NCBI GenBank assembly: GCA_021325135.1 | Contig: JAJPHT010000046.1 | Location: 32,001 to 96,000, forward strand | DNA length: 64,000 nt | Direction of reading: 5' to 3' | From: Pseudomonadota bacterium | GTDB lineage: Archaea > Thermoplasmatota > SW-10-69-26 > JACQPN01 > JAJPHT01 | Shown here: positions 13,726 through 50,068 of the stretch, piece after piece | Position numbering within the stretch: position 1 is the stretch's first letter | How the letters are laid out: every line of letters starts with the position of its first letter | The notes under the pieces: model-generated | The model's input: the letters and a program-made list of their open reading frames with translations, nothing else | Told to the model about the DNA's origin: nothing | Database searches by the model: none | Translations under genes and position numbers: made by a program

Positions 13726-15564
13726 TCAGGCGCAGCCGTGGGCGGGGTCCGACGCCGCGGCGACGCTGCGGCCGCCGACGTCCTGGCCCGTGGGGTTCAG
13801 GCTCGAGCCCGCGCCCACGAGCGTGGTGTCGTAGCAGTCCGTGTCGCGGAGGTTGTACGAGCCGCCCACGAGGCCGAGGAACCGCTCGTTCAGCTTCGCG
13901 CCGGTGGTGGGGTCGAGGTTCCAGTTGGCGGGGTCGCAGTTCCAGCCGTACACGTCGTGCGCGTTGCGGCCGATGCCCTGCGTGCACCACTCGGCGCCGT
14001 AGGTGCCCACGCCGCCGGGCGTGCGCAGGCCGGAGGCGGTGACGGTCGCGTAGAACGTGTAGTAGTCCGCGCGGAACGTGTCGGGCGCGACGCTGAGGCT
14101 GTCCTTCGTCTCCGCGTTGGGGGCGCCGACGCTGGGCTGCGTGCCCAGGTAGGTGACGCCGTTCCACCACTCGTCGGAGGTCAGCAGCAGGATGCCCACC
14201 GCGTGCACGGGCTGGCCGCCGTTGCTGGGCCGGCCGCACGTCAGGCCGCCGGAGCCGGGGACCGTGACGACGGGCAGCTCGGGCAGGGGGTCGCCGTTGG
14301 GGTCGATGGAGACGTCGTCGCAGGTGCTGCGGCCCATGACGCCCTGGAAGCCGAAGCTCATGTCGGCCTGGGTCTTGTCCGACGCGTAGGTGGCGCCGGA
14401 GTCGCTGGCCTCGAAGTTGCCGTAGAAGTCGCCGCCGCTGTCGTTGCTGGTGTCGCAGTCGCCCAGGAGCTCCTCGTTGGTCTCGTTGACCGTGGCGGGG
14501 ATCGTGCCCTGCGCGTTGGGCTGGAGGGTGCCGGGCGGGCGGACGGTCTGGATGTCGCCGGGGTCCGCGACGCCGCCCTCGGCGGGCGTGCCGGTGGCGG
14601 GGTCCGAGACGGTGATGGGGTCCGCGCTGCAGTCCTGCTCGCCCCAGACGATGCTGTTGCTGCCGCCGTGGCAGTCCTTCTCGGACACGTCCTGGCCGTC
14701 CTTGCAGCTCTGCTCGGTGCCGAAGGTGGGCTGGTCCAGGGGGCCGCCGGGCTGGTAGAGCGAGCGGGGGTCGGGGAGCGTCTGGACGATGCCGGTGGGG
14801 TCGTCCGCGACGCCCGTGTTGTAGAGGTCGTGCGGGGTGGGCGCGCGGGTGGACTCCACGCACACGAGGTGCTGGATGATGCCGCCCGTGTGGGACACGT
14901 CGCCGTGGCCGAAGGGGGGCACGATGCTCACCTGGCGGCAGTGGTCGCTGGGGACCAGGGGGCCGCCGGGGGTCACGGGCGCCGTGTGCAGGTCGCCCCA
15001 GACCTTGATGCCGGCGTCCGGGATGAGGCGGTAGTTGTTGGCGTTGGCCATGAGCTCGGTGGTGTCCGTGCCGCCGATGCTCGCGGGCGCGATGGGGATC
15101 AGCTCGGTGATCCAGCCGCCGTCGTTGTGGATGGTGCCCGCGTGCGCGGCGTCGTCAGGGGTGACGGGGCAGATGTCCGTGTTGACCGGGAAGCCGGCCG
15201 CGGCGCTGGCCTCGGCGCGGTACTCGATGAGCGCGCCGCCGGCGAAGCCGACGTAGCCGTCCTGGTTGCAGTCCGCCCAGACGCCCAGGACGGAGCGCCA
15301 GGCGCCCTCGCCCACGGTGCTGACGCGGCTCTGGAGGATCGCCGAGTTGGGGGCGACGCCGCCGTTGGTGCCTTCCGCGTTGTACACGTTGAAGTAGACC
15401 TGGGCGGTGGCGGTGCCCGGGGCGTCCGACCACATGAAGCCGTGGCCGACGTCGTAGCCCGAGTCGGGCTCGGCGCCGCCGACTGAGCCCCAGCCCGCCA
15501 GGGCCGAGGGGACAAGCATGGCCGTCGCCAGCGCGACAGCCGAAAGGGTGACGATGCGATTCAT
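13726..15564 (-). CDS. Large Cys/Asp/Gly-rich secreted protein (612 aa), paralog of 36185-38062
   Basis: Signal peptide; GVWADCNQDGYVG (Ca-binding-like DxNxDG); WITELIPI; YNLRDTDCYDTTLVG. Confidence 0.85.
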   Translation of the reverse strand: MNRIVTLSAVALATAMLVPSALAGWGSVGGAEPDSGYDVGHGFMWSDAPGTATAQVYFNVYNAEGTNGGVAPNSAILQSRVSTVGEGAWRSVLGVWADCNQDGYVGFAGGALIEYRAEASAAAGFPVNTDICPVTPDDAAHAGTIHNDGGWITELIPIAPASIGGTDTTELMANANNYRLIPDAGIKVWGDLHTAPVTPGGPLVPSDHCRQVSIVPPFGHGDVSHTGGIIQHLVCVESTRAPTPHDLYNTGVADDPTGIVQTLPDPRSLYQPGGPLDQPTFGTEQSCKDGQDVSEKDCHGGSNSIVWGEQDCSADPITVSDPATGTPAEGGVADPGDIQTVRPPGTLQPNAQGTIPATVNETNEELLGDCDTSNDSGGDFYGNFEASDSGATYASDKTQADMSFGFQGVMGRSTCDDVSIDPNGDPLPELPVVTVPGSGGLTCGRPSNGGQPVHAVGILLLTSDEWWNGVTYLGTQPSVGAPNAETKDSLSVAPDTFRADYYTFYATVTASGLRTPGGVGTYGAEWCTQGIGRNAHDVYGWNCDPANWNLDPTTGAKLNERFLGLVGGSYNLRDTDCYDTTLVGAGSSLNPTGQDVGGRSVAAASDPAHGCA

Positions 15565-34955: not shown

Positions 34956-35061
34956 CGGGGCCCCAAGGGGAGGGCCCGAGAAGAGCGCACCGCCCCCGCG
35001 CCCCGGCGGCTGCGCGCTTCCGCACCCTTCATGGGAGCGGGCCGCGTCCCGGAATCCTCCT

Positions 35062-35143
35062 GCGGGGGTCCTCTAGCCCGGAATGAGGTGGGACTTAGGA
35101 TCCCATGCTTAGCGCAGCGCCGGTTCGAATCCGGCCCCCCGCA
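35062..35143 (+). tRNA. tRNA-Leu(TAG)
   Basis: Acceptor GCGGGGG/CCCCCGC plus A73; anticodon arm TGGGA-CTTAGGA-TCCCA; long variable arm; T-arm GCCGG-TTCGAAT-CCGGC; no encoded CCA. Confidence 0.88.
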
Positions 35144-35216
35144 TCCCTCAAGGCTCCGTGCTTCGCTGCTCTCAAGCGGGCGCAGGCTCATCGTCAGAAG
35201 GCCCCAAGCGAAGGGC

Positions 35217-35400: not shown

Positions 35401-36033
35401 GTGACGCCCAAAGAGCGCGTTCTCCTGCGCTTCGCCATCGGCCTCGTCGTCGCCATCCCGCTGGTGTGGTGGGACCCGGGCGGCCTCGTCCCCGATGGAT
35501 TGCGCGACAACCTCGTGGCCGAGCTCGTGGGCGCGCTCATCACGGTCGCGTTCGTGGAGCGAGCGCTGGACGCCGTGGAGCGCCGCTCGGCCCGCCAGCA
35601 GCGCGAGGAGCTTCGCCGCAAGGCCGAGGCCACGCTGGAGGCGGACCTCCACGCGCTCTGGAGCCTCATGTCGGAGCCCAAGGCGCGCGACGACCCGCTG
35701 CGGCGCGCCTCGACCGCGGCGCGGCTGGAGCGGTTCCTCCGGGACCTGGAGGAGCCCGAGACGTGGGCGTCCGCGCCGGCGGGCCACGCCGCGGCGGTGC
35801 GGGGGCGCGTGCGCGACCTGGGCGAGGACGCGGACCGCCTCCTGGTGCTCGCCGAGGGGACGGAGGACGTGGGCGCGCGGGCCCGGTTCGACGCGCTGCG
35901 CCGCGCGTGCCGCGACCTCGACGAGGCGTGGGGCGCGACGCCGCGCGGGCAGCTGGCCCCCTTCTTCCGGTCGAGGATTGCCCCGGAGGTCCACGGCATC
36001 CTGGCCGCCCTGCGCCGCGACGACCCGCGCTGA
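35401..36033 (+). CDS. Hypothetical membrane protein (2 N-terminal TM + helical domain)
   Basis: NLVAELVGALITVAFVE followed by a charged helix. Confidence 0.7.
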   Translation: MTPKERVLLRFAIGLVVAIPLVWWDPGGLVPDGLRDNLVAELVGALITVAFVERALDAVERRSARQQREELRRKAEATLEADLHALWSLMSEPKARDDPLRRASTAARLERFLRDLEEPETWASAPAGHAAAVRGRVRDLGEDADRLLVLAEGTEDVGARARFDALRRACRDLDEAWGATPRGQLAPFFRSRIAPEVHGILAALRRDDPR

Positions 36034-36184: not shown

Positions 36185-38062
36185 ATGAATCGCACCCTCA
36201 CCTTCACGGCCGTCGCCCTCGCGGCGGCGATGCTCGTGCCCACCGGCCTCGCGTCGTGGGGATCATACGGCGGCCAGGAGCCCGACAACAAGTACGACCT
36301 GCCCGCGGCGGGCAACTTCGTCTGGCAGGGCCCGCCCACCGGCACGGACCAGGTCTACTTCAACGTCGTGAACGGCTACGCGCCCAACGGCCCCGCGGGC
36401 GCCAGCCCCAACTCGGCCACGCTGGGCGACCGCGTGCAGGTGGCCGGCACCGGCTCCTACGCCGCGATCCTCGGCGTCTGGGTCGACTGCAACAAGGACG
36501 GCTACGTCGGCCTCGCCGACGGCGCGCTGCGCGAGTACCGCGCGGACGTCTCCGCCGCCGCGGGCTTCCCCGTGGACACGGACCGCTGCCCGGTCGTCCC
36601 CGAGGACGCCGCGCACGCGGGCGCCATCCACAACGCGAACAACTGGATCACGGAGCTCATCCCCATCACGAACGTGACCATCGCGAACACCAACGACGAC
36701 CCCCACGGCGTCACGGACCCCACCGGCACGTCTGGCGGCGTCCACAACCCCATGGTGGACTACCGCGTCATCGTCGACGAGTCGGCGAAGATGTGGGCGG
36801 ACCGCCTCCAGCCCGTGACGCCCACGGCGGCGCCCGCGCGCGACGGCTGCACGCAGGCCACCGTCATGTTCGGCAAGGGCCAGACGCGCCACACGGGCGG
36901 CATCCTCGACCACATCGACTGCGTCGAGTCGCTCTTCGCGCCGCGCCCCAACACCGTCTTCCGCCTCGTGAGCGAGAAGGACCCCACGGGCGCCGTGGGC
37001 CCCGCCGTGAGCGGCAACCCCGTCGCGCCCTTCAGCAAGCCCTCCGACCTGTGGGACGGCGGCGTGCTGGACGTCGACCTCTTCGGCACGGACCAGAGCT
37101 GCGCGGGCGGCGAGCCCCAGCCCTGCTCCAGCGGCAGCAACAGCATCGTCTCGGGCGAGCAGGACTGCTCCTCCGCGCCCGTCGTGGACACCACCGACGA
37201 GACCGGCACGCCCGGCCAGTCGGGCCAGAGCGGCGTGCGCGCGCCCGGCCAGCCCAACGTGAACCAGCACGGCACGGTCGCGGCCACGGTGAACGAGACC
37301 CACGAGGAGAGCGCGCTGGACGACTGCAACAGCGCGGACGACGGCGGCCTCGACTTCTACGGCAACGGTGTCACCGAGGTCCCCGTGGAGGACGCGGTCA
37401 CCGTCACCGGCAAGAACAGCGCCGAGATGAACTTCTTCTGGGACGGCGGCGCGGGCCGCGTCGACTGCGAGCAGGACGACGCCGTCGCGCTCTGCCAGCT
37501 CAACGGCATGCCCCTGGACGCGGGCGCCCCCGCCACCGAGATGGCCAACACCAACGGGCTGGGCGCCACCGCGGGCGCTCCCCAGGCCGACACGGGCAGC
37601 CCCGGCAACGAGTGGCTCGCGGACGCGTACTACGCGGACGAGCTGCCCCTCGTGAACGGCAACCGCGTCAACACCGACGACCCCACGCGCAGCACCGTCG
37701 GGTTCTTCCCCGGCGACTTCTACACGTTCTACGCCAGCGTGGGCCTCTCGGGCCTCGTCACGCCCGGCGGCGTGGGCCAGTACGGCGCCCCGTGGTGCCT
37801 GGACGGCATCGGCCGCAACGCGGGCATCCAGAACGGCTGGGACTGCGACCCCGCCAACTGGAACCTCGACCCCACCACCGGCGCGAAGCTGGACGACCAG
37901 GCGCACCGCGGCACCGTGGGCGACCCGTACAACCTGCGCGACGTGGACTGCTACGACACCACGCTCGTGGGCGCGGGCTCCAGCCTGAACCCCACGGGCG
38001 AGGACGTGGGCCCCCGCTCGCTGCCCAGCCCGGTCATCGACCCGGCGCAGGGCTGCTACTAG
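36185..38062 (+). CDS. Large Cys/Asp/Gly-rich secreted protein (625 aa), paralog of 13726-15564
   Basis: MNRTLTF..LASWGS signal; GVWVDCNKDGYVG; WITELIPI; WDCDPANWNLDPTTGAKL; YNLRDVDCYDTTLVG. Confidence 0.85.
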   Translation: MNRTLTFTAVALAAAMLVPTGLASWGSYGGQEPDNKYDLPAAGNFVWQGPPTGTDQVYFNVVNGYAPNGPAGASPNSATLGDRVQVAGTGSYAAILGVWVDCNKDGYVGLADGALREYRADVSAAAGFPVDTDRCPVVPEDAAHAGAIHNANNWITELIPITNVTIANTNDDPHGVTDPTGTSGGVHNPMVDYRVIVDESAKMWADRLQPVTPTAAPARDGCTQATVMFGKGQTRHTGGILDHIDCVESLFAPRPNTVFRLVSEKDPTGAVGPAVSGNPVAPFSKPSDLWDGGVLDVDLFGTDQSCAGGEPQPCSSGSNSIVSGEQDCSSAPVVDTTDETGTPGQSGQSGVRAPGQPNVNQHGTVAATVNETHEESALDDCNSADDGGLDFYGNGVTEVPVEDAVTVTGKNSAEMNFFWDGGAGRVDCEQDDAVALCQLNGMPLDAGAPATEMANTNGLGATAGAPQADTGSPGNEWLADAYYADELPLVNGNRVNTDDPTRSTVGFFPGDFYTFYASVGLSGLVTPGGVGQYGAPWCLDGIGRNAGIQNGWDCDPANWNLDPTTGAKLDDQAHRGTVGDPYNLRDVDCYDTTLVGAGSSLNPTGEDVGPRSLPSPVIDPAQGCY

Positions 38063-38070
38063 GCAACCCC

Positions 38071-38106
38071 CCGCGGCGGGCGACCGCCGCGGCCCCCTCC
38101 TTTTTC
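38071..38106 (+). terminator. GC hairpin + T-tract terminator
   Basis: CCGCGGCGG-GCGA-CCGCCGCGG then CCCCCTCCTTTTT. Confidence 0.65.
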
Positions 38107-38130
38107 TAGTTGCTTCTTCCAACGCCCAGC

Positions 38131-39342
38131 GTGCGCGCCGCCGCGCCGGGCCTCGCCCTCCTCCTCGTGGTCGCCGGCCTCGCCAGCGCGCACCCGGCCC
38201 TCCTCTCGTCGGAGCCTCCGGCCGGGGCGCGCCTCGCGCCGGGGCCTCATGATATCACGCTGCGCTTCAGCGAGGGGCTGGAGGGGGCCTTCACCGAGGC
38301 GGTCCTCCTGAACGCGGAGGGCCGCGCGCTGCCAAGGACGCTGGAGCGCCCGCCGCTGGACCCGGCCGTGCTCGTGGTCCACGCGCAGGACCTCCCTCCG
38401 GGAGGCTACGTCCTCCGGTGGCGCGCGCTGGGCCTCGACGGCCACTCCGCCACCGGGGAGATCCCCTACGCGGTGGGCGACGCGGCGGTGCCGGTCGTGG
38501 TCGGGGCCCCCGCGCCGGCGCCCGTGCTGGAAAGCGCGGGCCGCGGCGCGCTCCTGCTGGGATTGCTCGTGGCCGCGGGGGCGCCGGGCATGCTGGCGGC
38601 GATGCGCGCGGAGGCGCCGCCGCGGCGCGCGCGCCTCCTCCTGGTGGCGGCGACGGGGCTCGCGGCGGCGGGCGCGCTGGCGCTCCTCGTGGCCCTCGCG
38701 TCGAGCCTGGGCGCGGGCCTCCTCGTGGCCGTGGCGACGGCGCCCGGCGAGGTGCTCGCCGCGCAGGCCGCGCTCGCGCTGCTGTCGTTCGGGCTCTCGT
38801 GGCGCGCCGCGCGGCAGCCCGCGGCGTGGGCGGCGGTGGGCGCCCTCTTCGTCCACCTGGGGACCTCCCACGGCGTCGCAGGGGGCGCCGTCGGCGGCGC
38901 GCACGGGGCGCACCTGCACCTCCTCGCCCTGGCCGCGCACCTGGGCGCCGCGGCGGTCTGGGCGGGCGGGCTCGCCGCGCTCCTTTTGATATCAGGCGGG
39001 GCCGCGGCGCGGGCGGGCGCCATCCGGCGCTTCTCCCCCTGGGCCCTGGGGGGCGTCGCGCTCCTGGCCGCCACCGGCGCGTACCAGGCGTGGGCGGACC
39101 TCCCGGGGCTGGGGGCCCTCGCGGGCAGCGCGTATGGGCGGCTGCTCCTGGCGAAGACGGGCCTCTTCGCGCTCCTCGTGGGGCTGGGCGCCTTGCAGCA
39201 GCGCGTCATCGGGCCGCGCCTTGCCCGCCTGGCCACGCGGCCCGCCGGAGCGCGCGTCGCCCTCGCCGTGGAGGCCTTCGCCATGGCCGGGCTCCTCGCC
39301 CTGGCGGGTGTCCTCGGCGCGACCGCGACGCCGACGCCGTGA
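38131..39342 (+). CDS. copCD: Copper resistance/uptake CopC-CopD fusion
   Basis: Signal then H-PALLSSEP (CopC His1), WRALGLDGH; CopD TMs with SHG, AAHL.AAAVWAGGL, RRFS, YGRLLLAK. Confidence 0.88.
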   Translation: MRAAAPGLALLLVVAGLASAHPALLSSEPPAGARLAPGPHDITLRFSEGLEGAFTEAVLLNAEGRALPRTLERPPLDPAVLVVHAQDLPPGGYVLRWRALGLDGHSATGEIPYAVGDAAVPVVVGAPAPAPVLESAGRGALLLGLLVAAGAPGMLAAMRAEAPPRRARLLLVAATGLAAAGALALLVALASSLGAGLLVAVATAPGEVLAAQAALALLSFGLSWRAARQPAAWAAVGALFVHLGTSHGVAGGAVGGAHGAHLHLLALAAHLGAAAVWAGGLAALLLISGGAAARAGAIRRFSPWALGGVALLAATGAYQAWADLPGLGALAGSAYGRLLLAKTGLFALLVGLGALQQRVIGPRLARLATRPAGARVALAVEAFAMAGLLALAGVLGATATPTP

Positions 39343-39448
39343 CGGCGGGAAAACCCCTCGGGTCCAAGAGGGGTGGGAAAAGCTCGCCGGTCTAAATAGC
39401 CGCCACGAGAAACCCAACTGGCTCCACGCGGGAGCCCCCGTGATCGCC

Positions 39449-39988
39449 ATGGATGGCTGGACCCTGGGCCTCGTCGCCAACGCCGTGATCGCCACCGCCT
39501 ACCTCGCCGTTGCCGTGCTGCTGGGGGTGAACATCTCCCGCACGCGCCAGTGGATGACCAACCCCCTGGCCGCGGGGACGTTCTTCCTCTACCTGACGTG
39601 CGGGGGCGCCCACGGCATCGTCGGGCTCCAGCTGGCCAGCCTCAGCGTCAGCGGCGCTGCCGTGGAGGGGAGCCGGCTCCTCTACGGCTCGTGGACGATG
39701 TGGGGCTGGGACATCGTCACCGCGGGCGTGGGCGTGTGGTACTGGACGATGCGCAACCGCTTCCCCGACCTCGTCTCGGGCACCGCCGTCTTCGAGGACC
39801 TCCGCCAGCGGCAGAAGCGCGCCGTGGAGATCAACGACAACGTCGTCCAGGGCCTCGCGCGCGCGAAGCTGAGCCTCGACCTGCACCGCGACGCGGAGGG
39901 CCGCGAGGCCTTGCAGGAGACCATCGAGGCCAGCCAGCGCATCGTGAAGGAGCTGGAGGCGACGCACCCCAAGGAGGCGGGCGGATGA
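39449..39988 (+). CDS. 3-TM ethylene-receptor-like (CxxxH) sensor with degenerate HisKA_3-like helix, subunit 1
   Basis: N11-x6-Y18, C51-x3-H55, WD88IVTA; C-terminal QKRAVEINDNVVQGL; no ATPase domain. Confidence 0.75.
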   Translation: MDGWTLGLVANAVIATAYLAVAVLLGVNISRTRQWMTNPLAAGTFFLYLTCGGAHGIVGLQLASLSVSGAAVEGSRLLYGSWTMWGWDIVTAGVGVWYWTMRNRFPDLVSGTAVFEDLRQRQKRAVEINDNVVQGLARAKLSLDLHRDAEGREALQETIEASQRIVKELEATHPKEAGG

Positions 39989-40572
39989 GCTTCGAGTGGT
40001 GGTGGATCACCGCGGCCTCCAACGCGATCATGGTGGTCATCTACGCCGTCATCGCCACGATCATGATCCGCGGCATCCAGACGGGGCACCAGTGGCGCAC
40101 GAACCCCATCGCGGTCGCCACGGCCGCCGTGTTCGTGACGTGCACGGTCGCCCACGGGCAGCACCTCCTCCACCTGCTGCCGCCCCTCGCGCAGGCGGAG
40201 CCCGCCCAGTTCGCCGCCGCGCAGGCCATGTTCAACGACCCCGCGCTCGTGGTCTGGGACGGCTTCACCGCCTCGGTCGCCGTCTGGTACTTCCTCATGC
40301 GCAGCCGCCTCGTCATCGTCTACGAGGGCGCCGCCCTCTGCGAGGACATCGCGGAGCGCCAGCGCCAGGCGGCCCTCCTCCACGAGAAGGTCGTCGAGGG
40401 GCTCGCCCGGGCCGAGCGCGCGCTGGAGAACGGAGAGCGCGAGGCGGGCCTGCGCAGCATCGAGGCCACGCTGGAGGAGAGCAAGACCATCATCACGACG
40501 CTCGTGGGACGCGCCGGCACCCGCGCGGGCCTGGGCCCGGGCGACCTGCGCCGCGACCAGCCGAGCCACTAG
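39985..40572 (+). CDS. 3-TM ethylene-receptor-like (CxxxH) sensor with HisKA_3-like helix, subunit 2
   Basis: N13-x6-Y20, C53-x3-H57, WD92GFTA; QRQAALLHEKVVEGL; ATGA-coupled paralog of the upstream gene. Confidence 0.75.
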   Translation: MSFEWWWITAASNAIMVVIYAVIATIMIRGIQTGHQWRTNPIAVATAAVFVTCTVAHGQHLLHLLPPLAQAEPAQFAAAQAMFNDPALVVWDGFTASVAVWYFLMRSRLVIVYEGAALCEDIAERQRQAALLHEKVVEGLARAERALENGEREAGLRSIEATLEESKTIITTLVGRAGTRAGLGPGDLRRDQPSH

Positions 40573-40579
40573 GAGCATC

Positions 40580-41296
40580 ATGCAGGCGAGCGACCCCCTC
40601 ACCACCGAGCCGCCCCAGGACCCGCGCCTGCGCGAGCTGGAGCGCCAGAACGCCGAGCTGCAGCGCTTCGCCTCCCACGCCGCGCACGACCTCCAGGAGC
40701 CCCTGCGCCTCGTAAGCGGCTACCTCGACGTCCTCCTCGCCGAGCACGAGGCCGCCCTCCCCGCCGACGCGCGCATGCTCGCCCGCGAGGCCCGCGACGC
40801 GGCGCTCCGCATGCAGGGCCTCGTGCAGGGGCTCCTGGAGCAGGCGCGCGCCACCGACGCCGCGCTCCACCTGGAGACGTACCCCCTCTCCGAGAGCTAC
40901 GAGGAGGCTATGACAAACCTCGCCGGCGCCGCGGGCGTCGCGTGCGGCCCGCTGCCCATCGTGCGCGCCGACCGCAGGCAGATCACGCGCGTGCTCCAGA
41001 ACCTCCTCTCCAACGCCCTCAAGTTCCACGCGCCCGACGACCCCGCCCGCGTCGAGGTCTCCGCGCGGCGCGCGGGCCGCGAGTGGGAGATCCTCGTCGC
41101 CGACCACGGCCTCGGCCTCCCCGAGAAGGCGCCCCTCTTCGAGCCCTTCCGCCGCCACCACCCCCAGATCCCCGGCACGGGCCTCGGCCTCGCCGCGTGC
41201 AAGGCCATCGTCGAGCGCCACGGCGGCCGCATCTGGGCGACGCCCACCGAGGGCGGCGGCGCCACGTTCCACTTCACCCTGGAGCCACCTCCATGA
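40580..41296 (+). CDS. Soluble histidine kinase core without sensor domain
   Basis: ELQRFASHAAHDLQEPL, NLLSNALKF, DHGLGL, LFEPF, GTGLGL. Confidence 0.92.
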   Translation: MQASDPLTTEPPQDPRLRELERQNAELQRFASHAAHDLQEPLRLVSGYLDVLLAEHEAALPADARMLAREARDAALRMQGLVQGLLEQARATDAALHLETYPLSESYEEAMTNLAGAAGVACGPLPIVRADRRQITRVLQNLLSNALKFHAPDDPARVEVSARRAGREWEILVADHGLGLPEKAPLFEPFRRHHPQIPGTGLGLAACKAIVERHGGRIWATPTEGGGATFHFTLEPPP

Positions 41297-41736
41297 CCGA
41301 CGCGAGAATCCTTCTTGTGGACGACAACGACAAGCTGCGCGCGCTCTACCGCATCAGCCTCCAGATGGCCCAAGGCCTGGAGGTCGTGGGCGAGGCCGCC
41401 AACGGCGCCGAGGCCATCGAGGAGACGCGCGGCAAGCGCCCCGACCTCGTGCTGCTGGACCTCAGCATGCCCACCATGGACGGCCTGGAGGCGTTGGGCC
41501 GGCTGCGCCAGGCAAGCCCGCAGAGCCACGTCGTCGTCCTCACCGGCTTCCGCAACGAGCGCCTGGGAAGCGTCGCCATCGAGCTTGGCGCCACCGCGTT
41601 CCTGGAGAAGGGCATCTCACCCACCGAGCTTGCGGCGCGCGTCAAGGACGTGCTCGCGCGGCCCGTGCCCGCCTACCACGAGCCGGGCGAGGAGAAGCGC
41701 GCGGAGCTGGAGCGCAGGGTGCGGGACCTGGTCTGA
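41293..41736 (+). CDS. Stand-alone response regulator receiver
   Basis: ILLVDD, VLLDLSMPTMDG, VLTG, FLEK; ATGA overlap. Confidence 0.93.
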   Translation: MTDARILLVDDNDKLRALYRISLQMAQGLEVVGEAANGAEAIEETRGKRPDLVLLDLSMPTMDGLEALGRLRQASPQSHVVVLTGFRNERLGSVAIELGATAFLEKGISPTELAARVKDVLARPVPAYHEPGEEKRAELERRVRDLV

Positions 41737-41758: not shown

Positions 41759-41763
41759 TTCAG

Positions 41764-41836
41764 CGGCCCCGGCTGGACTCGAACCAGCACCCTCGGATTA
41801 ACAGTCCGAGATCGCTACCCATTAGACTACAGAGCC
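41764..41836 (-). tRNA. tRNA-Asn(GTT)
   Basis: GGCTCTG TA GTCT AATGGGTAG CGAT C TCGGA CTGTTAA TCCGA GGGT GCTGG TTCGAGT CCAGC CGGGGCC G; TTTAA box about 30 nt upstream. Confidence 0.92.
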
Positions 41837-46871: not shown

Positions 46872-46921
46872 TTGGAGAAGGTGTTAAGCCCGTGCCCCCG
46901 GCTCGTCGTGCCGACTCGCGG

Positions 46922-48796
46922 ATGATCACCTTCCTCGTGGGCAACTCCCGCGTCCTCCTCACCATCGACGAGAAGGGCAACTGGTCGAACCTCTACTACC
47001 CGTGGGCGGGTCAGTACCAGCACCTTCGCGCGGTGAAGCTGGGCCTCTACGACGTGGAGGAGGACGCCTTCGCCTGGCTGGGCGACGACGCCGCGTGGAC
47101 CGTGGAGCAGGACCACCACCGCGGGTCCAACGCGGGGCGCACGCTCTACGTGGGCCCCCTGGCGGACGTGGAGGTGGTGGACAGCGTCCACTCCAACCAC
47201 GACCTCATCGTACGCCGCATCGTGGTCCACAACAAGACGCCCGACGCGAAGCGCTTCCGCCTCTTCCACTACCAGAGCCTCATGGTGGCCGAGTCCATGT
47301 ACCAGGACACGGCGTACTGGGACGACGAGCGCCGGACCATCAACCACTACAAGCGCAACTACTACTTCCAGTACATGGGCGCGCCCGCCTTCGACGCGTT
47401 CACGTGCGGCGAGCACACGCTGAAGGGGCTCCAGGGCTCCTACGTGGACGCCGAGGACGGCAAGCTGGAAGGCTCGCGCATCAGCCACGGGGCGGCCGAC
47501 TCCGTCGCGCAGTGGAACGTCGACGTGCCCGCCGGCGGCGAGGCCACGGTGCGCCTCATGTGCATGATCGCCCAGTCGCGCAAGGCGGTCAACACCCTCC
47601 ACGCCACGTTCAAGGCGCGCGCCGCGGAGGAGCTGGAGAAGGAGGCGCTGGACTTCTGGCGCCACTGGATCGAGCACAAGGACATGCGCCTGCCCCCCGC
47701 CCTCTCGCCCCGCGCCCGGGACGTGTACCGGCAGAGCATCTACGTCCTGCGCACGTGCAGCAGCCAGAACGGCGCCATCATCGCGAGCCCCGACCCGCGC
47801 ACGCTGAAGTCGGGCGGCGACACGTACAACTACACCTGGTGGCGCGACGGCGCGTACATCAGCAAGGCCATGGACGAGGTGGGCCTCTACGAGAACGCGC
47901 ACCGCTTCCTCAAGTTCGCCGAGCAGTGCCAGGAGGACGAGGGGTACTTCCTCCACCGCCACTTCCCCGACGGCACGGTGGGCAGCACGTGGCACCTGCC
48001 CCCCTTCATCCAGATCGACCAGACCGCCAGCGTGGTCAGCGCCGTATGGCACCACTTCAAGCGCGACGGCGACCTCGACGTGCTTCTGGAGCTGTGGCCC
48101 GTGGTCAAGCGCGGCGCCAACTTCCTGGAGTCGTTCGTGGACGCGCGCGGCCTGCCCCTGCCCAGCTACGACCTCTGGGAGGAGAAGAAGGCCGTCAACG
48201 CGTACTCCGTCGCCGCCGTGATCCACGGCCTGGAGCGCGCGGAGCGCATCAGCGAGCAGCTGGGCAAGTCCCGCGGCCGCTGGAGAAAGGCCTCCGAGCG
48301 CATGCGGACCGCGATGCTCCAGCACCTCTGGAACGACGCCAAGGGGTGCTTCAACAAGAGCATCGACCCCCTGGACGAGACCGTCGACGCCTCCACGCTC
48401 CTCACGCTGAAGCTGGGCGTGCTGGACCCCGCGGACGCCCGCGCCGAGCGCCTGGTGCAGGCCGTCGAGAAGCGCCTCTGGGTGAAGTCCACCGGCGGGG
48501 TCGCCCGCTACGAGGGGGACACCTACTACGGTCCCGAGAACCCGTGGATCATCTGCACGCTCTGGCTCGCCGAGGCACACCTCATGCTGGGCCGCCCCGA
48601 ACGGACGCGGGAGCTCCTGGAGTGGGCCGCCAAGACCGCGGGCCCCACGCTGCTGCTGCCCGAGCAGCTCGACGCGCGCACCGGCGAGCACACCTCCGTC
48701 ACGCCGCTGGTCTGGTCGCATTCCACCTTCGTAGACGTCATGAACAAATACCGGCGCCACGTAGAGGGCGGCGCCGCTGCCGACCGCAGCGAGTAG
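46922..48796 (+). CDS. Glucoamylase-like glycoside hydrolase family 15
   Basis: GAIIASP, YNYTWWRDG, QIDQT, YDLWEE, RYEGDTY, LLPEQ, PLVWSH. Confidence 0.93.
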   Translation: MITFLVGNSRVLLTIDEKGNWSNLYYPWAGQYQHLRAVKLGLYDVEEDAFAWLGDDAAWTVEQDHHRGSNAGRTLYVGPLADVEVVDSVHSNHDLIVRRIVVHNKTPDAKRFRLFHYQSLMVAESMYQDTAYWDDERRTINHYKRNYYFQYMGAPAFDAFTCGEHTLKGLQGSYVDAEDGKLEGSRISHGAADSVAQWNVDVPAGGEATVRLMCMIAQSRKAVNTLHATFKARAAEELEKEALDFWRHWIEHKDMRLPPALSPRARDVYRQSIYVLRTCSSQNGAIIASPDPRTLKSGGDTYNYTWWRDGAYISKAMDEVGLYENAHRFLKFAEQCQEDEGYFLHRHFPDGTVGSTWHLPPFIQIDQTASVVSAVWHHFKRDGDLDVLLELWPVVKRGANFLESFVDARGLPLPSYDLWEEKKAVNAYSVAAVIHGLERAERISEQLGKSRGRWRKASERMRTAMLQHLWNDAKGCFNKSIDPLDETVDASTLLTLKLGVLDPADARAERLVQAVEKRLWVKSTGGVARYEGDTYYGPENPWIICTLWLAEAHLMLGRPERTRELLEWAAKTAGPTLLLPEQLDARTGEHTSVTPLVWSHSTFVDVMNKYRRHVEGGAAADRSE

Positions 48797-48812
48797 CAGG
48801 GAGCAGGAACCC

Positions 48813-49997
48813 GTGAAAGTCGCGATGATCGGATGGGAGTTCCCGCCATTCATGGCCGGGGGCCTGGGCATCCACTGCCTGGAGCTGACGACGCAGCTGG
48901 CCAAGATGGGCGTCGCCATCGACTTCTACATGCCCCACATGGCCCTGGAGGGCGACCTCCGGGTCGCGGACCACCACCGCCACCTGGCCATCTACGAGGT
49001 GGAGGCCGAGCCCTCCCTCTCCCCCTACGGCGGGACGCGGCAGCGCGGCTACGACGACGCGTTCAACGACGCGGTCTGGCAGTACAACATGCGCGTCGTG
49101 GACGCCTTCCGCAGCCACGACGCGGACGTCCTCCACGCCCACGACTGGATCACCTTCCAGGCCGCCGCGGAGCTGAAGCGCCGCACGGGCAAGCCCCTGG
49201 TGTGGAGCTGCCACAGCACCGAGTACGACCGCAGCGCGGGCTTCTTCCCGCAGGACTGGATCATCGACCTGGAGAAGGCCGCCGTGCGCGCCGCGGACGT
49301 GGTGATCGCCGTCTCCGAGTACACGCGCCAACAGCTCATCGACCGCTACGGAGCCGACCCCCGGAAGGTCGTGCCCATCCACAACGGCGTCGACTTCAGC
49401 AAGTGGGTCACGCGCTCGGGCCGCGACTACGGGCAGGCCAGCAAGGTCGTGCTCTACCTCTCCCGCGTCTCGCGCCAGAAGGGGCCCATGAGCTTCATCC
49501 GCGCCGCCAAGCGCGTCCTGGACCAGGACCGCAGCGTGCGCTTCGTCGTCGCGGGCAAGGGCGAGATGATCCCCGAGATGATCCGCTTCTGCATCGCCAA
49601 CGGCATCATGGAGAGCGTCACCTTCACCGGCTTCGTCCCCGACTCCGAGGCGCAGCGCCTCTACGAGGCCGCCGACGTGTACGTGCTCCCCAGCGTCAGC
49701 GAGCCCTTCGGCATCAGCGTGCTGGAGGCCATGACCAGCGGATGTCCCACCATCGTGAGCAAGACGACGGGCGTCGGCGAGGCGCTAACGCACGTCCTGC
49801 GCGCCGAGCACTGGGACAGCGACGAGATGGCGGACCAGATCCTCGCCGTGCTGCGCGACAAGCCCCTGCGCGAGGCGCTGGGAAAGAACGGCGCGCTGGA
49901 GGTGCGCAAGTTCACCTGGGAGCGCACCGGGCGCAAGACGCTCTCCGCCTACGACCGGGCGCTGGAGCGCGCGCAGCCCCTGACGGTGAGCGCATGA
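48813..49997 (+). CDS. Glycosyltransferase family 4 (glycogen synthase-like)
   Basis: GWEFPP..GGLG, HAHDW, HSTEYDR, QKG, PSVSEPFGI..LEAM. Confidence 0.93.
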   Translation: MKVAMIGWEFPPFMAGGLGIHCLELTTQLAKMGVAIDFYMPHMALEGDLRVADHHRHLAIYEVEAEPSLSPYGGTRQRGYDDAFNDAVWQYNMRVVDAFRSHDADVLHAHDWITFQAAAELKRRTGKPLVWSCHSTEYDRSAGFFPQDWIIDLEKAAVRAADVVIAVSEYTRQQLIDRYGADPRKVVPIHNGVDFSKWVTRSGRDYGQASKVVLYLSRVSRQKGPMSFIRAAKRVLDQDRSVRFVVAGKGEMIPEMIRFCIANGIMESVTFTGFVPDSEAQRLYEAADVYVLPSVSEPFGISVLEAMTSGCPTIVSKTTGVGEALTHVLRAEHWDSDEMADQILAVLRDKPLREALGKNGALEVRKFTWERTGRKTLSAYDRALERAQPLTVSA

Positions 49998-50068
49998 CCG
50001 ACGTGTGCTTCGACGCCTTGCCGCAGCAAGGTGGCGAGAAGACGTCCGGAAGGAGCGTGAGCGACTGA
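49994..50068 (+). CDS. 24-aa mini-ORF duplicating the GH57 N-terminus (MTDVCFDALPQQGGEKTSGRSVSD)
   Basis: ATGA overlap with the GT4 stop; its TGA overlaps the CTG that opens the true GH57 frame. Confidence 0.45.
   Translation: MTDVCFDALPQQGGEKTSGRSVSD

Follow-up and report, generated by a model that had tools for sequence, protein, structure and literature searches.

Here, we analysed a 64,000-nucleotide stretch of contig JAJPHT010000046.1 (assembly GCA_021325135.1, positions 32,001 to 96,000; hereafter the window) and found that two adjacent membrane proteins encoded in it, sensors A and B, belong to a diverged branch of relatives of the ETR1 ethylene-binding domain. Their genes are followed by those of a soluble histidine kinase (HK) and a stand-alone receiver (REC), and a CopC-CopD fusion (CopCD) lies upstream. 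Based on sequence comparisons, we propose with a probability of about 0.55 that A and B pair as a heterodimeric phosphatase, metal-dependent and gated by a ligand, which opposes the input-less kinase on one receiver. An initial annotation had described the locus as an archaeal, copper-loaded, ethylene-receptor-like sensor that signals in trans to the kinase. Its five open reading frames are in place with the architectures described, and the archaeal host is supported by a GTDB Thermoplasmatota genome in the same family (locus L006, genome G131). The probable source sequencing run of this archaeon is from soil, and among the runs listed none is of RNA.

The sensor domains are distant relatives of the ETR1 domain

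At 31% identity (E 5e-27), sensors A and B are paralogs, and ATGA overlaps join their genes to each other and the HK gene to the REC gene. The predicted sensor structure (pLDDT 92) consists of three long helices and one short amphipathic helix. Sensor A carries N11-x6-Y18, C51 (33 residues after the Tyr), H55 and D88-x2-T91-A, followed by EINDNVVQGL; the counterparts in B are N13, Y20, C53, H57, D92 and T95, followed by LLHEKVVEGL. Both proteins end after one helical hairpin with no ATPase domain behind it. As about 190 aa is the norm in the family, we rejected the view that the ATPase is missing because of a frameshift or a break in the assembly; a contig of the probable source run, which is not an independent sample, covers 37951-41235 with zero differences.

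Are A and B true relatives of the ETR1-type domain? Taken singly, they remain with 16.6 and 11.4 bits below the curated cut-off of Pfam PF25487 (ETR1_N, 27 bits), and a few members of their family exceed it (e.g. 30.9 and 32 bits). At E<=0.1, PF25487 is matched by 101 of 128 family members, the best at 1.5e-8. Aligning the family profile with 120 canonical ETR1_N domains by hhalign gave a probability of 88.8 (E 2.5e-6) over 77 columns and three transmembrane (TM) helices. The score was 40.2, whereas 40 block shuffles reached at most 21.4 and the reversed profile 12.8. The alignment places N, Y, C, H, D and T of the family on D25, Y32, C65, H69, K91 and T94 of ETR1, which is the register proposed at the outset. 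These profile comparisons confirm a distant relationship of A and B to the ETR1 ethylene-binding domain beyond chance, and the branch forms a clade of its own apart from the canonical ETR1_N domains (support 100). Fold searches (PDB, VIA-wide and Atlas) returned generic helical bundles only; PDB sequence searches returned nothing relevant, the same as for a canonical ETR1_N query, and we found no solved ETR1_N structure for comparison.

The equivalents of Cys65 and His69 are present in 100% of the A and B clades and in 85% and 93% of the wider family, which supports the initial annotation on this point. Sensor B and the single-gene ancestors have two further His, 7 and 10 residues beyond the Cys (H+7, H+10). 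In the window's B, the metal-type residues in TM2 are C53, H57, H60 and H63, and C53, H57 and H60 (C, H+4, H+7) lie on one helix face, which from the ETR1 topology we infer to point outward. Around this core the pocket is changed: P36 is Ala and I62 is Tyr or Phe throughout, and the polar pair D25-K91 (D in 98% and K in 100% of the canonical set) is not kept, with N/S and D in its place, which would fit the suggestion that the acidic residue moved from TM1 to TM3. The Cys/His site is probably a metal site of ETR1 ancestry in a rebuilt pocket, and metal binding by A/B appears likely. The domain would work like an ETR1 domain, yet by its residues it falls outside the ethylene receptors.

Seven residues of ETR1 are essential for ethylene binding (D25, Y32, I35, P36, I62, C65, H69). 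At these sites, sensor A has N,Y,V,A,Y,C,H and sensor B has N,Y,I,A,F,C,H; only 3/7 and 4/7 are kept, and ethylene, the ligand first named for this system, is thus unlikely. Indeed, P36 and I62 are both essential for ethylene binding in ETR1 (PMC6586836), K91 is Asp here, the extra His in B could fill the free site of the copper, and no copper or alkene gene recurs among the 123 nearest neighbours. A genuine ethylene receptor of low affinity, supplied with copper by CopCD, would agree with Y, C and H being kept in register, with copCD adjoining the sensors in two lineages, and with the natural ETR1 variant D25N, which still signals (PMC10266040) and is reported to have 100-fold lower affinity (PMC11971883). 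On balance, we consider such a receptor quite improbable.

The output hairpin carries a phosphatase motif and travels with a receiver

The sensor tail aligned with true HisKA_3 kinases at H-D-x-x-x-Q (E 1e-4, five templates), and PF07730 is matched by 28 of 128 family members. Both D and Q of the DxxxQ motif are kept in 184 of 218 members; at the phospho-His position, 108 of these 218 have N and 80 have H. Homology to the dimerisation and histidine phosphotransfer (DHp) helix of HisKA_3 with DxxxQ is found in A and is degenerate in B; the phospho-His is not invariant as in a HisKA_3 kinase (Asn in A), and neither A nor B has HATPase_c in the same chain. In NarX and CheZ, DxxxQ serves as the phosphatase motif, and the DHp domains of EnvZ and NtrB act as phosphatases in isolation (PMC3510030). 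A complex prediction for two A and the receiver scored 0.26 against a mark of 0.32 and speaks neither for nor against the pairing.

The receiver keeps D10, D11, D56, T84 and K106 and is nearest to NarL-type receivers. Receivers beside these sensors form one subfamily specific to the hairpin, and in 79 of 84 single-gene loci a receiver lies directly downstream of the sensor. A kinase is nearby in 13/38 well-flanked single-gene loci versus 9/10 well-flanked tandem loci; as the loci are not independent samples, all linkage figures are counts, not tests. The conserved partner of the sensors is the receiver, not the kinase. A model of the receiver subfamily scored 132-150 bits beside five of six scored unrelated membrane proteins with the same tail (84 at the sixth, L081), 28-65 bits on receivers beside the kinase-fused form of the same membrane domain, and <=66 bits on the other 35 receiver domains of the window's genome. 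The high scores beside the same tail and the low scores beside the kinase-fused form indicate that the receiver goes with the hairpin. By these scores, hairpin and receiver are a portable output module, and a sensor-receiver fusion exists (P0143).

The H, N, G1, F and G2 boxes of HK are intact. An equally bare kinase (213-261 aa) occurs in L118, L120, L124, L263 and L265, and a PAS-bearing one in more distant loci. Stand-alone receivers make up about 40% of archaeal regulators (PMC5847659). At L079, L080, L082, L084 and L085, we observed unannotated membrane proteins without the Cys/His motif, each with an EINDN(I/V)VQGL hairpin and an adjoining receiver of the same subfamily.

A probable division of labour between A and B

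Sensors A and B fall into separate clades (support 99 and 97), which always occur in tandem, and an A-B fusion protein exists (P0061). In the A clade (n=51), C, H, D88, D130 and Q134 are invariant, the extra His are mostly lost, and the phospho-His site is H in 53% and N in 47%; the window's A has Asn there and an intact DxxxQ (D130, Q134). In the B clade (n=23), CxxxHxxHxxH is nearly invariant (C, H and H+7 100%; H+10 96%), DxxxQ is eroded (D 70%, Q 61%), and the phospho-His is kept in 78%. The erosion is complete in B of the window's lineage (HEKVVE, HEKVVR, HENVVA, HERVMS, NAKVVE), and the hairpin was more conserved in A than in B in 11/11 comparisons to the window, which are not independent of each other. 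The archaeal pair is an old duplication. The separate clades, the complementary losses and the A-B fusion point to a heterodimer in which the metal site would be more complete in B and the catalytic helix would lie in A. Sensor A is probably the catalytic subunit and B the metal/ligand subunit, and the heterodimer, which had been suggested from the start, is likely.

At L263 (3-1562), three sensors stand in a row (B-A-B) ahead of a bare kinase.

Proposed mechanism and alternative readings

In the reading that we favour, the input-less HK would autophosphorylate and load the stand-alone receiver in a largely constitutive manner. The hairpins of A/B would build a HisKA_3-type four-helix bundle in a membrane heterodimer, and the DxxxQ of A would strip the phosphate from the receiver, whose output would run via protein contact. 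The ETR1-type Cys/His site, which in B is extended by another two His toward the outer face, would bind a soft metal, most likely copper, and metal occupancy, or a small ligand on the metal, would switch the phosphatase. Phosphatase activity is suggested by motif and linkage, and the kinase would be constitutive. As for the ligand, a gas or redox-active compound, ethylene excepted, falls somewhat short of an even chance, and copper or another metal ion is somewhat less likely. The more specific picture of an archaeal heterodimeric copper-cofactor receptor of the ethylene-receptor superfamily is unlikely as a whole; it would be loaded by the co-encoded CopCD, one subunit would sense gas or copper, and the only output would be a gated phosphatase in its partner, set against a constitutive kinase.

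Several points weigh against the gated phosphatase. The same pattern of conservation and linkage also fits a non-catalytic binding of the receiver. The NarX evidence stems from an ATPase-bearing kinase, and a lone HisKA_3 hairpin is not shown to be active in the literature cited here. In 25/38 well-flanked single-gene loci there is no phosphate donor beside the sensor, and the tree that separates A from B is a quick search on 122 columns. The D25N variant of ETR1 showed only residual copper binding in vitro (PMC10266040). Moreover, Glu at H+4 supports phosphatase activity in DrBphP (PMC8292422), and HK has Glu at H+4, so that an outside phosphatase may not be needed.

A split kinase, in which A/B bind the bare kinase and turn it on or off in trans, would account for the kinase that adjoins nearly all well-flanked tandem loci (the 9/10 above) and is input-less in the window's lineage, as well as for the fusion of the same membrane domain to PAS-HisKA-HATPase-REC in Actinoplanes and Frankia. 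However, the hairpin is of HisKA_3 type and the kinase of HisKA type, most single-gene loci keep the receiver without an adjacent kinase, several tandem loci have a PAS-bearing kinase or none (L249, L248), and the invariant DxxxQ would be left unexplained. With the receiver as travelling partner and a phosphatase motif as conserved element, the signalling in trans originally envisaged is improbable. The same degree of doubt applies to hairpins that act as pseudokinase and, without catalysis, bind the receiver, sequester it or read out its phosphorylation state (DivL-like). The strict pairing with one receiver subfamily and the loss of His and ATPase would fit, but the strong conservation of exactly D and Q, both catalytic, is better explained by catalysis. 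In a phosphorelay, the His of B would take the phosphate from one receiver and pass it on or license the phosphatase of A (RedE-like, PMC2755868). His retention (78% of B, 53% of A) and several tandem loci with two receivers or a REC-kinase speak for this, but most single-gene members, and B of L263, have Asn at this site, and the window has one receiver only; we regard the relay as very improbable.

Relation to known systems

With ETR1, SynEtr1 and AzoEtr1 (PMC10266040, PMC11819568), A/B share the three-helix domain and the Y, CxxxH and TM3 x-x-T-A in register. AzoEtr1 is also paired with a stand-alone receiver, and the Actinoplanes relatives share the sensor-PAS-kinase order with ethylene receptors. 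Unlike this group, A/B show D25->N/S, P36->A, I62->F/Y and K91->D, extra TM2 His and a 15-residue outer insertion, have no GAF/PAS and no ATPase, and consist of two unlike subunits. The H-D-x-x-x-Q helix and the NarL-type receiver partner recall NarX/DesK and CheZ (PMC3510030), whereas A/B have no ATPase, a dispensable His, a receiver without DNA-binding domain, and phosphate that would come from a HisKA kinase. In RedCDEF of Myxococcus xanthus (PMC2755868), a kinase and a non-autophosphorylating kinase-like protein are likewise opposed on a single-domain receiver; RedE is switched by its own phosphorylation, whereas the switch of A/B appears to be a membrane metal site and their hairpin is of HisKA_3 type. 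The archaeal 'HisKA, no HATPase' proteins (PMC5847659) also combine a sensor with dimerisation helices without ATPase, and a phosphatase role was proposed for them. However, these have PAS/GAF input and a conserved His and come from Archaeoglobi and Methanomicrobia, and the paper mentions neither HisKA_3 nor ethylene.

Thus, every module has a precedent: ETR1_N, DxxxQ phosphatases, RedE (PMC2755868) and archaeal ATPase-less HK-like proteins. New are the duplication in archaea with its complementary losses, the fusion of A to B, the bare-kinase lineage and the twice-seen copCD link, and our literature search found no description of this ETR1-related branch. To our knowledge, two-component signalling has no copper-based gas sensor other than the ethylene-receptor domain; here, a branch of this domain keeps the Cys/His core, rebuilds the pocket and reaches archaea. 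The branch offers a direct test of what sets ligand choice in ETR1-type domains and of whether ATPase-less DHp proteins are regulated phosphatases, as proposed for archaea (PMC5847659), with the A/B split providing natural single-function subunits. Cultured members are Haloglomus halophilum (pair with copCD) and Actinoplanes and Frankia (fused form).

Distribution of the family

The family profile was matched by 1,314 clusters at 50% identity, mostly unannotated. This large family of bacteria from soil and of Thermoplasmatota has loci in Actinomycetota, Chloroflexota, Dormiibacterota, Thermoplasmatota and a single haloarchaeon; bacteria account for most of it, and the system is not archaea-specific. 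It occurs in 9/21 genomes of the window's class, 16/401 of its phylum and 1/401 Halobacteria searched. Three layouts were found: a single sensor with receiver, mostly in bacteria; the A-B tandem, mostly in archaea; and the kinase-fused form of Actinoplanes and Frankia. A third weak match in the genome (C40:136726) was rejected; it lies in an unrelated 1115-aa secreted protein and was missed by the family HMM.

An archaeal-type A-B tandem in a genome labelled Nitrospiraceae (L008, 8001-9171) reflects either transfer or a mis-binned contig. The ESM Atlas rows for P0002 are clusters of ~206-210 aa from Pseudomonadota with canonical ETR1_N and HisKA_2 only, and ATPase-less forms seem to exist among true ETR1_N proteins too.

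CopCD and the promoter

The product of the gene upstream of A matches Pfam CopC (8e-15, 56 bits) and CopD (1e-16, 61 bits), both above cut-offs, and keeps the N-terminal His after the signal peptide and the DGH motif. It shares both domains and these CopC ligands with YcnJ-like CopC-CopD fusions, which we take to be copper uptake proteins, but is short (403 aa); a role in copper uptake is probable. In our search, the window's copCD had no relative above ~33% over its length, and it is ~35% alike to that of Haloglomus, as are other copCD of the class.

Is copCD part of the system? Of 21 genomes of the class, 19 have it, in most cases without linkage to the sensors, and the four-gene module occurs without it in L118, L120, L124, L260, L261, L263 and L265. 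In the two closest kin, L266 and L267 (80% identity), copD lies directly upstream of A, possibly through synteny alone. The one copCD that we found in the genome of Haloglomus halophilum lies inside the operon, with 4-nt overlaps with sensor B and kinase; this is the case in 1/48 well-flanked homologous loci. With 1-4 copD copies per genome, a rough estimate of the chance for one Haloglomus-like case is 5-10%, so that the link is suggestive only and copCD not a core part. The initial assignment of CopCD to the system is backed by linkage in the closest kin and Haloglomus only.

An element like TCTAAATAG is found upstream of A in L266, L267 and L263, whatever gene precedes, and the 3.8 Mb genome has just 26 copies of [CT]TAAATA. 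The position of this TATA-like element between copCD and A suggests that A-B-HK-REC is transcribed apart from copCD in the window. A sigma-70 promoter scan found none, the sigma-70 consensus not being applicable here. The element, the DxxxQ motif, the two extra His in TM2 of B and the P36/I62 changes go beyond the initial annotation.

Locus and variable region

Features of the locus, in window coordinates
Feature	Position	Strand	Remarks
tRNA-Leu	35061..35146	+	left border of variable region
CopC-CopD fusion	38131..39342	+	403 aa from GTG; TTG 38110 possible start; accessory, not core
purine run + TATA-like TCTAAATAG	39377..39399	+	probable promoter of the putative A-B-HK-REC operon
sensor A	39449..39988	+	179 aa; alternative start GTG 39440; ETR1_N-related 3-TM + HisKA_3-like hairpin
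sensor B	39985..40572	+	195 aa; paralog of A, His-rich TM2, degenerate motif
soluble HisKA kinase (HK) without input domain	40580..41296	+	HisKA + HATPase_c only
stand-alone NarL-type receiver (REC)	41293..41736	+	receiver domain only
tRNA-Asn	41763..41836	-	right border of variable region

The sensors are missing from four genomes of the same genus, and in one of them, which is 99% complete (G134, L209 1578-1760), an inverted, truncated receiver relic (67% identity) lies at the same tRNA-Asn site. The sensor-less genomes and the relic indicate that the module was gained or lost at a tRNA-bordered variable region. A recent foreign insertion was rejected on composition (GC3 0.94-0.99, like core genes).

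At 35401-36033 (+) lies a 210-aa membrane-anchored open reading frame with no Pfam match, which is 72% identical at the same site in G134. The gene at 36185-38062 (+) encodes a secreted protein of 625 aa, rich in Cys, Asp and Gly, for which neither Pfam nor Atlas gave a match; it has five more full-length paralogs in the genome (42-49% identity), one of them in the window at ~13732-15564 (-). Downstream, at 46892-50000 (+), inspection of the translations points to a glycoside-hydrolase-15-like gene with a glycosyltransferase gene behind it.

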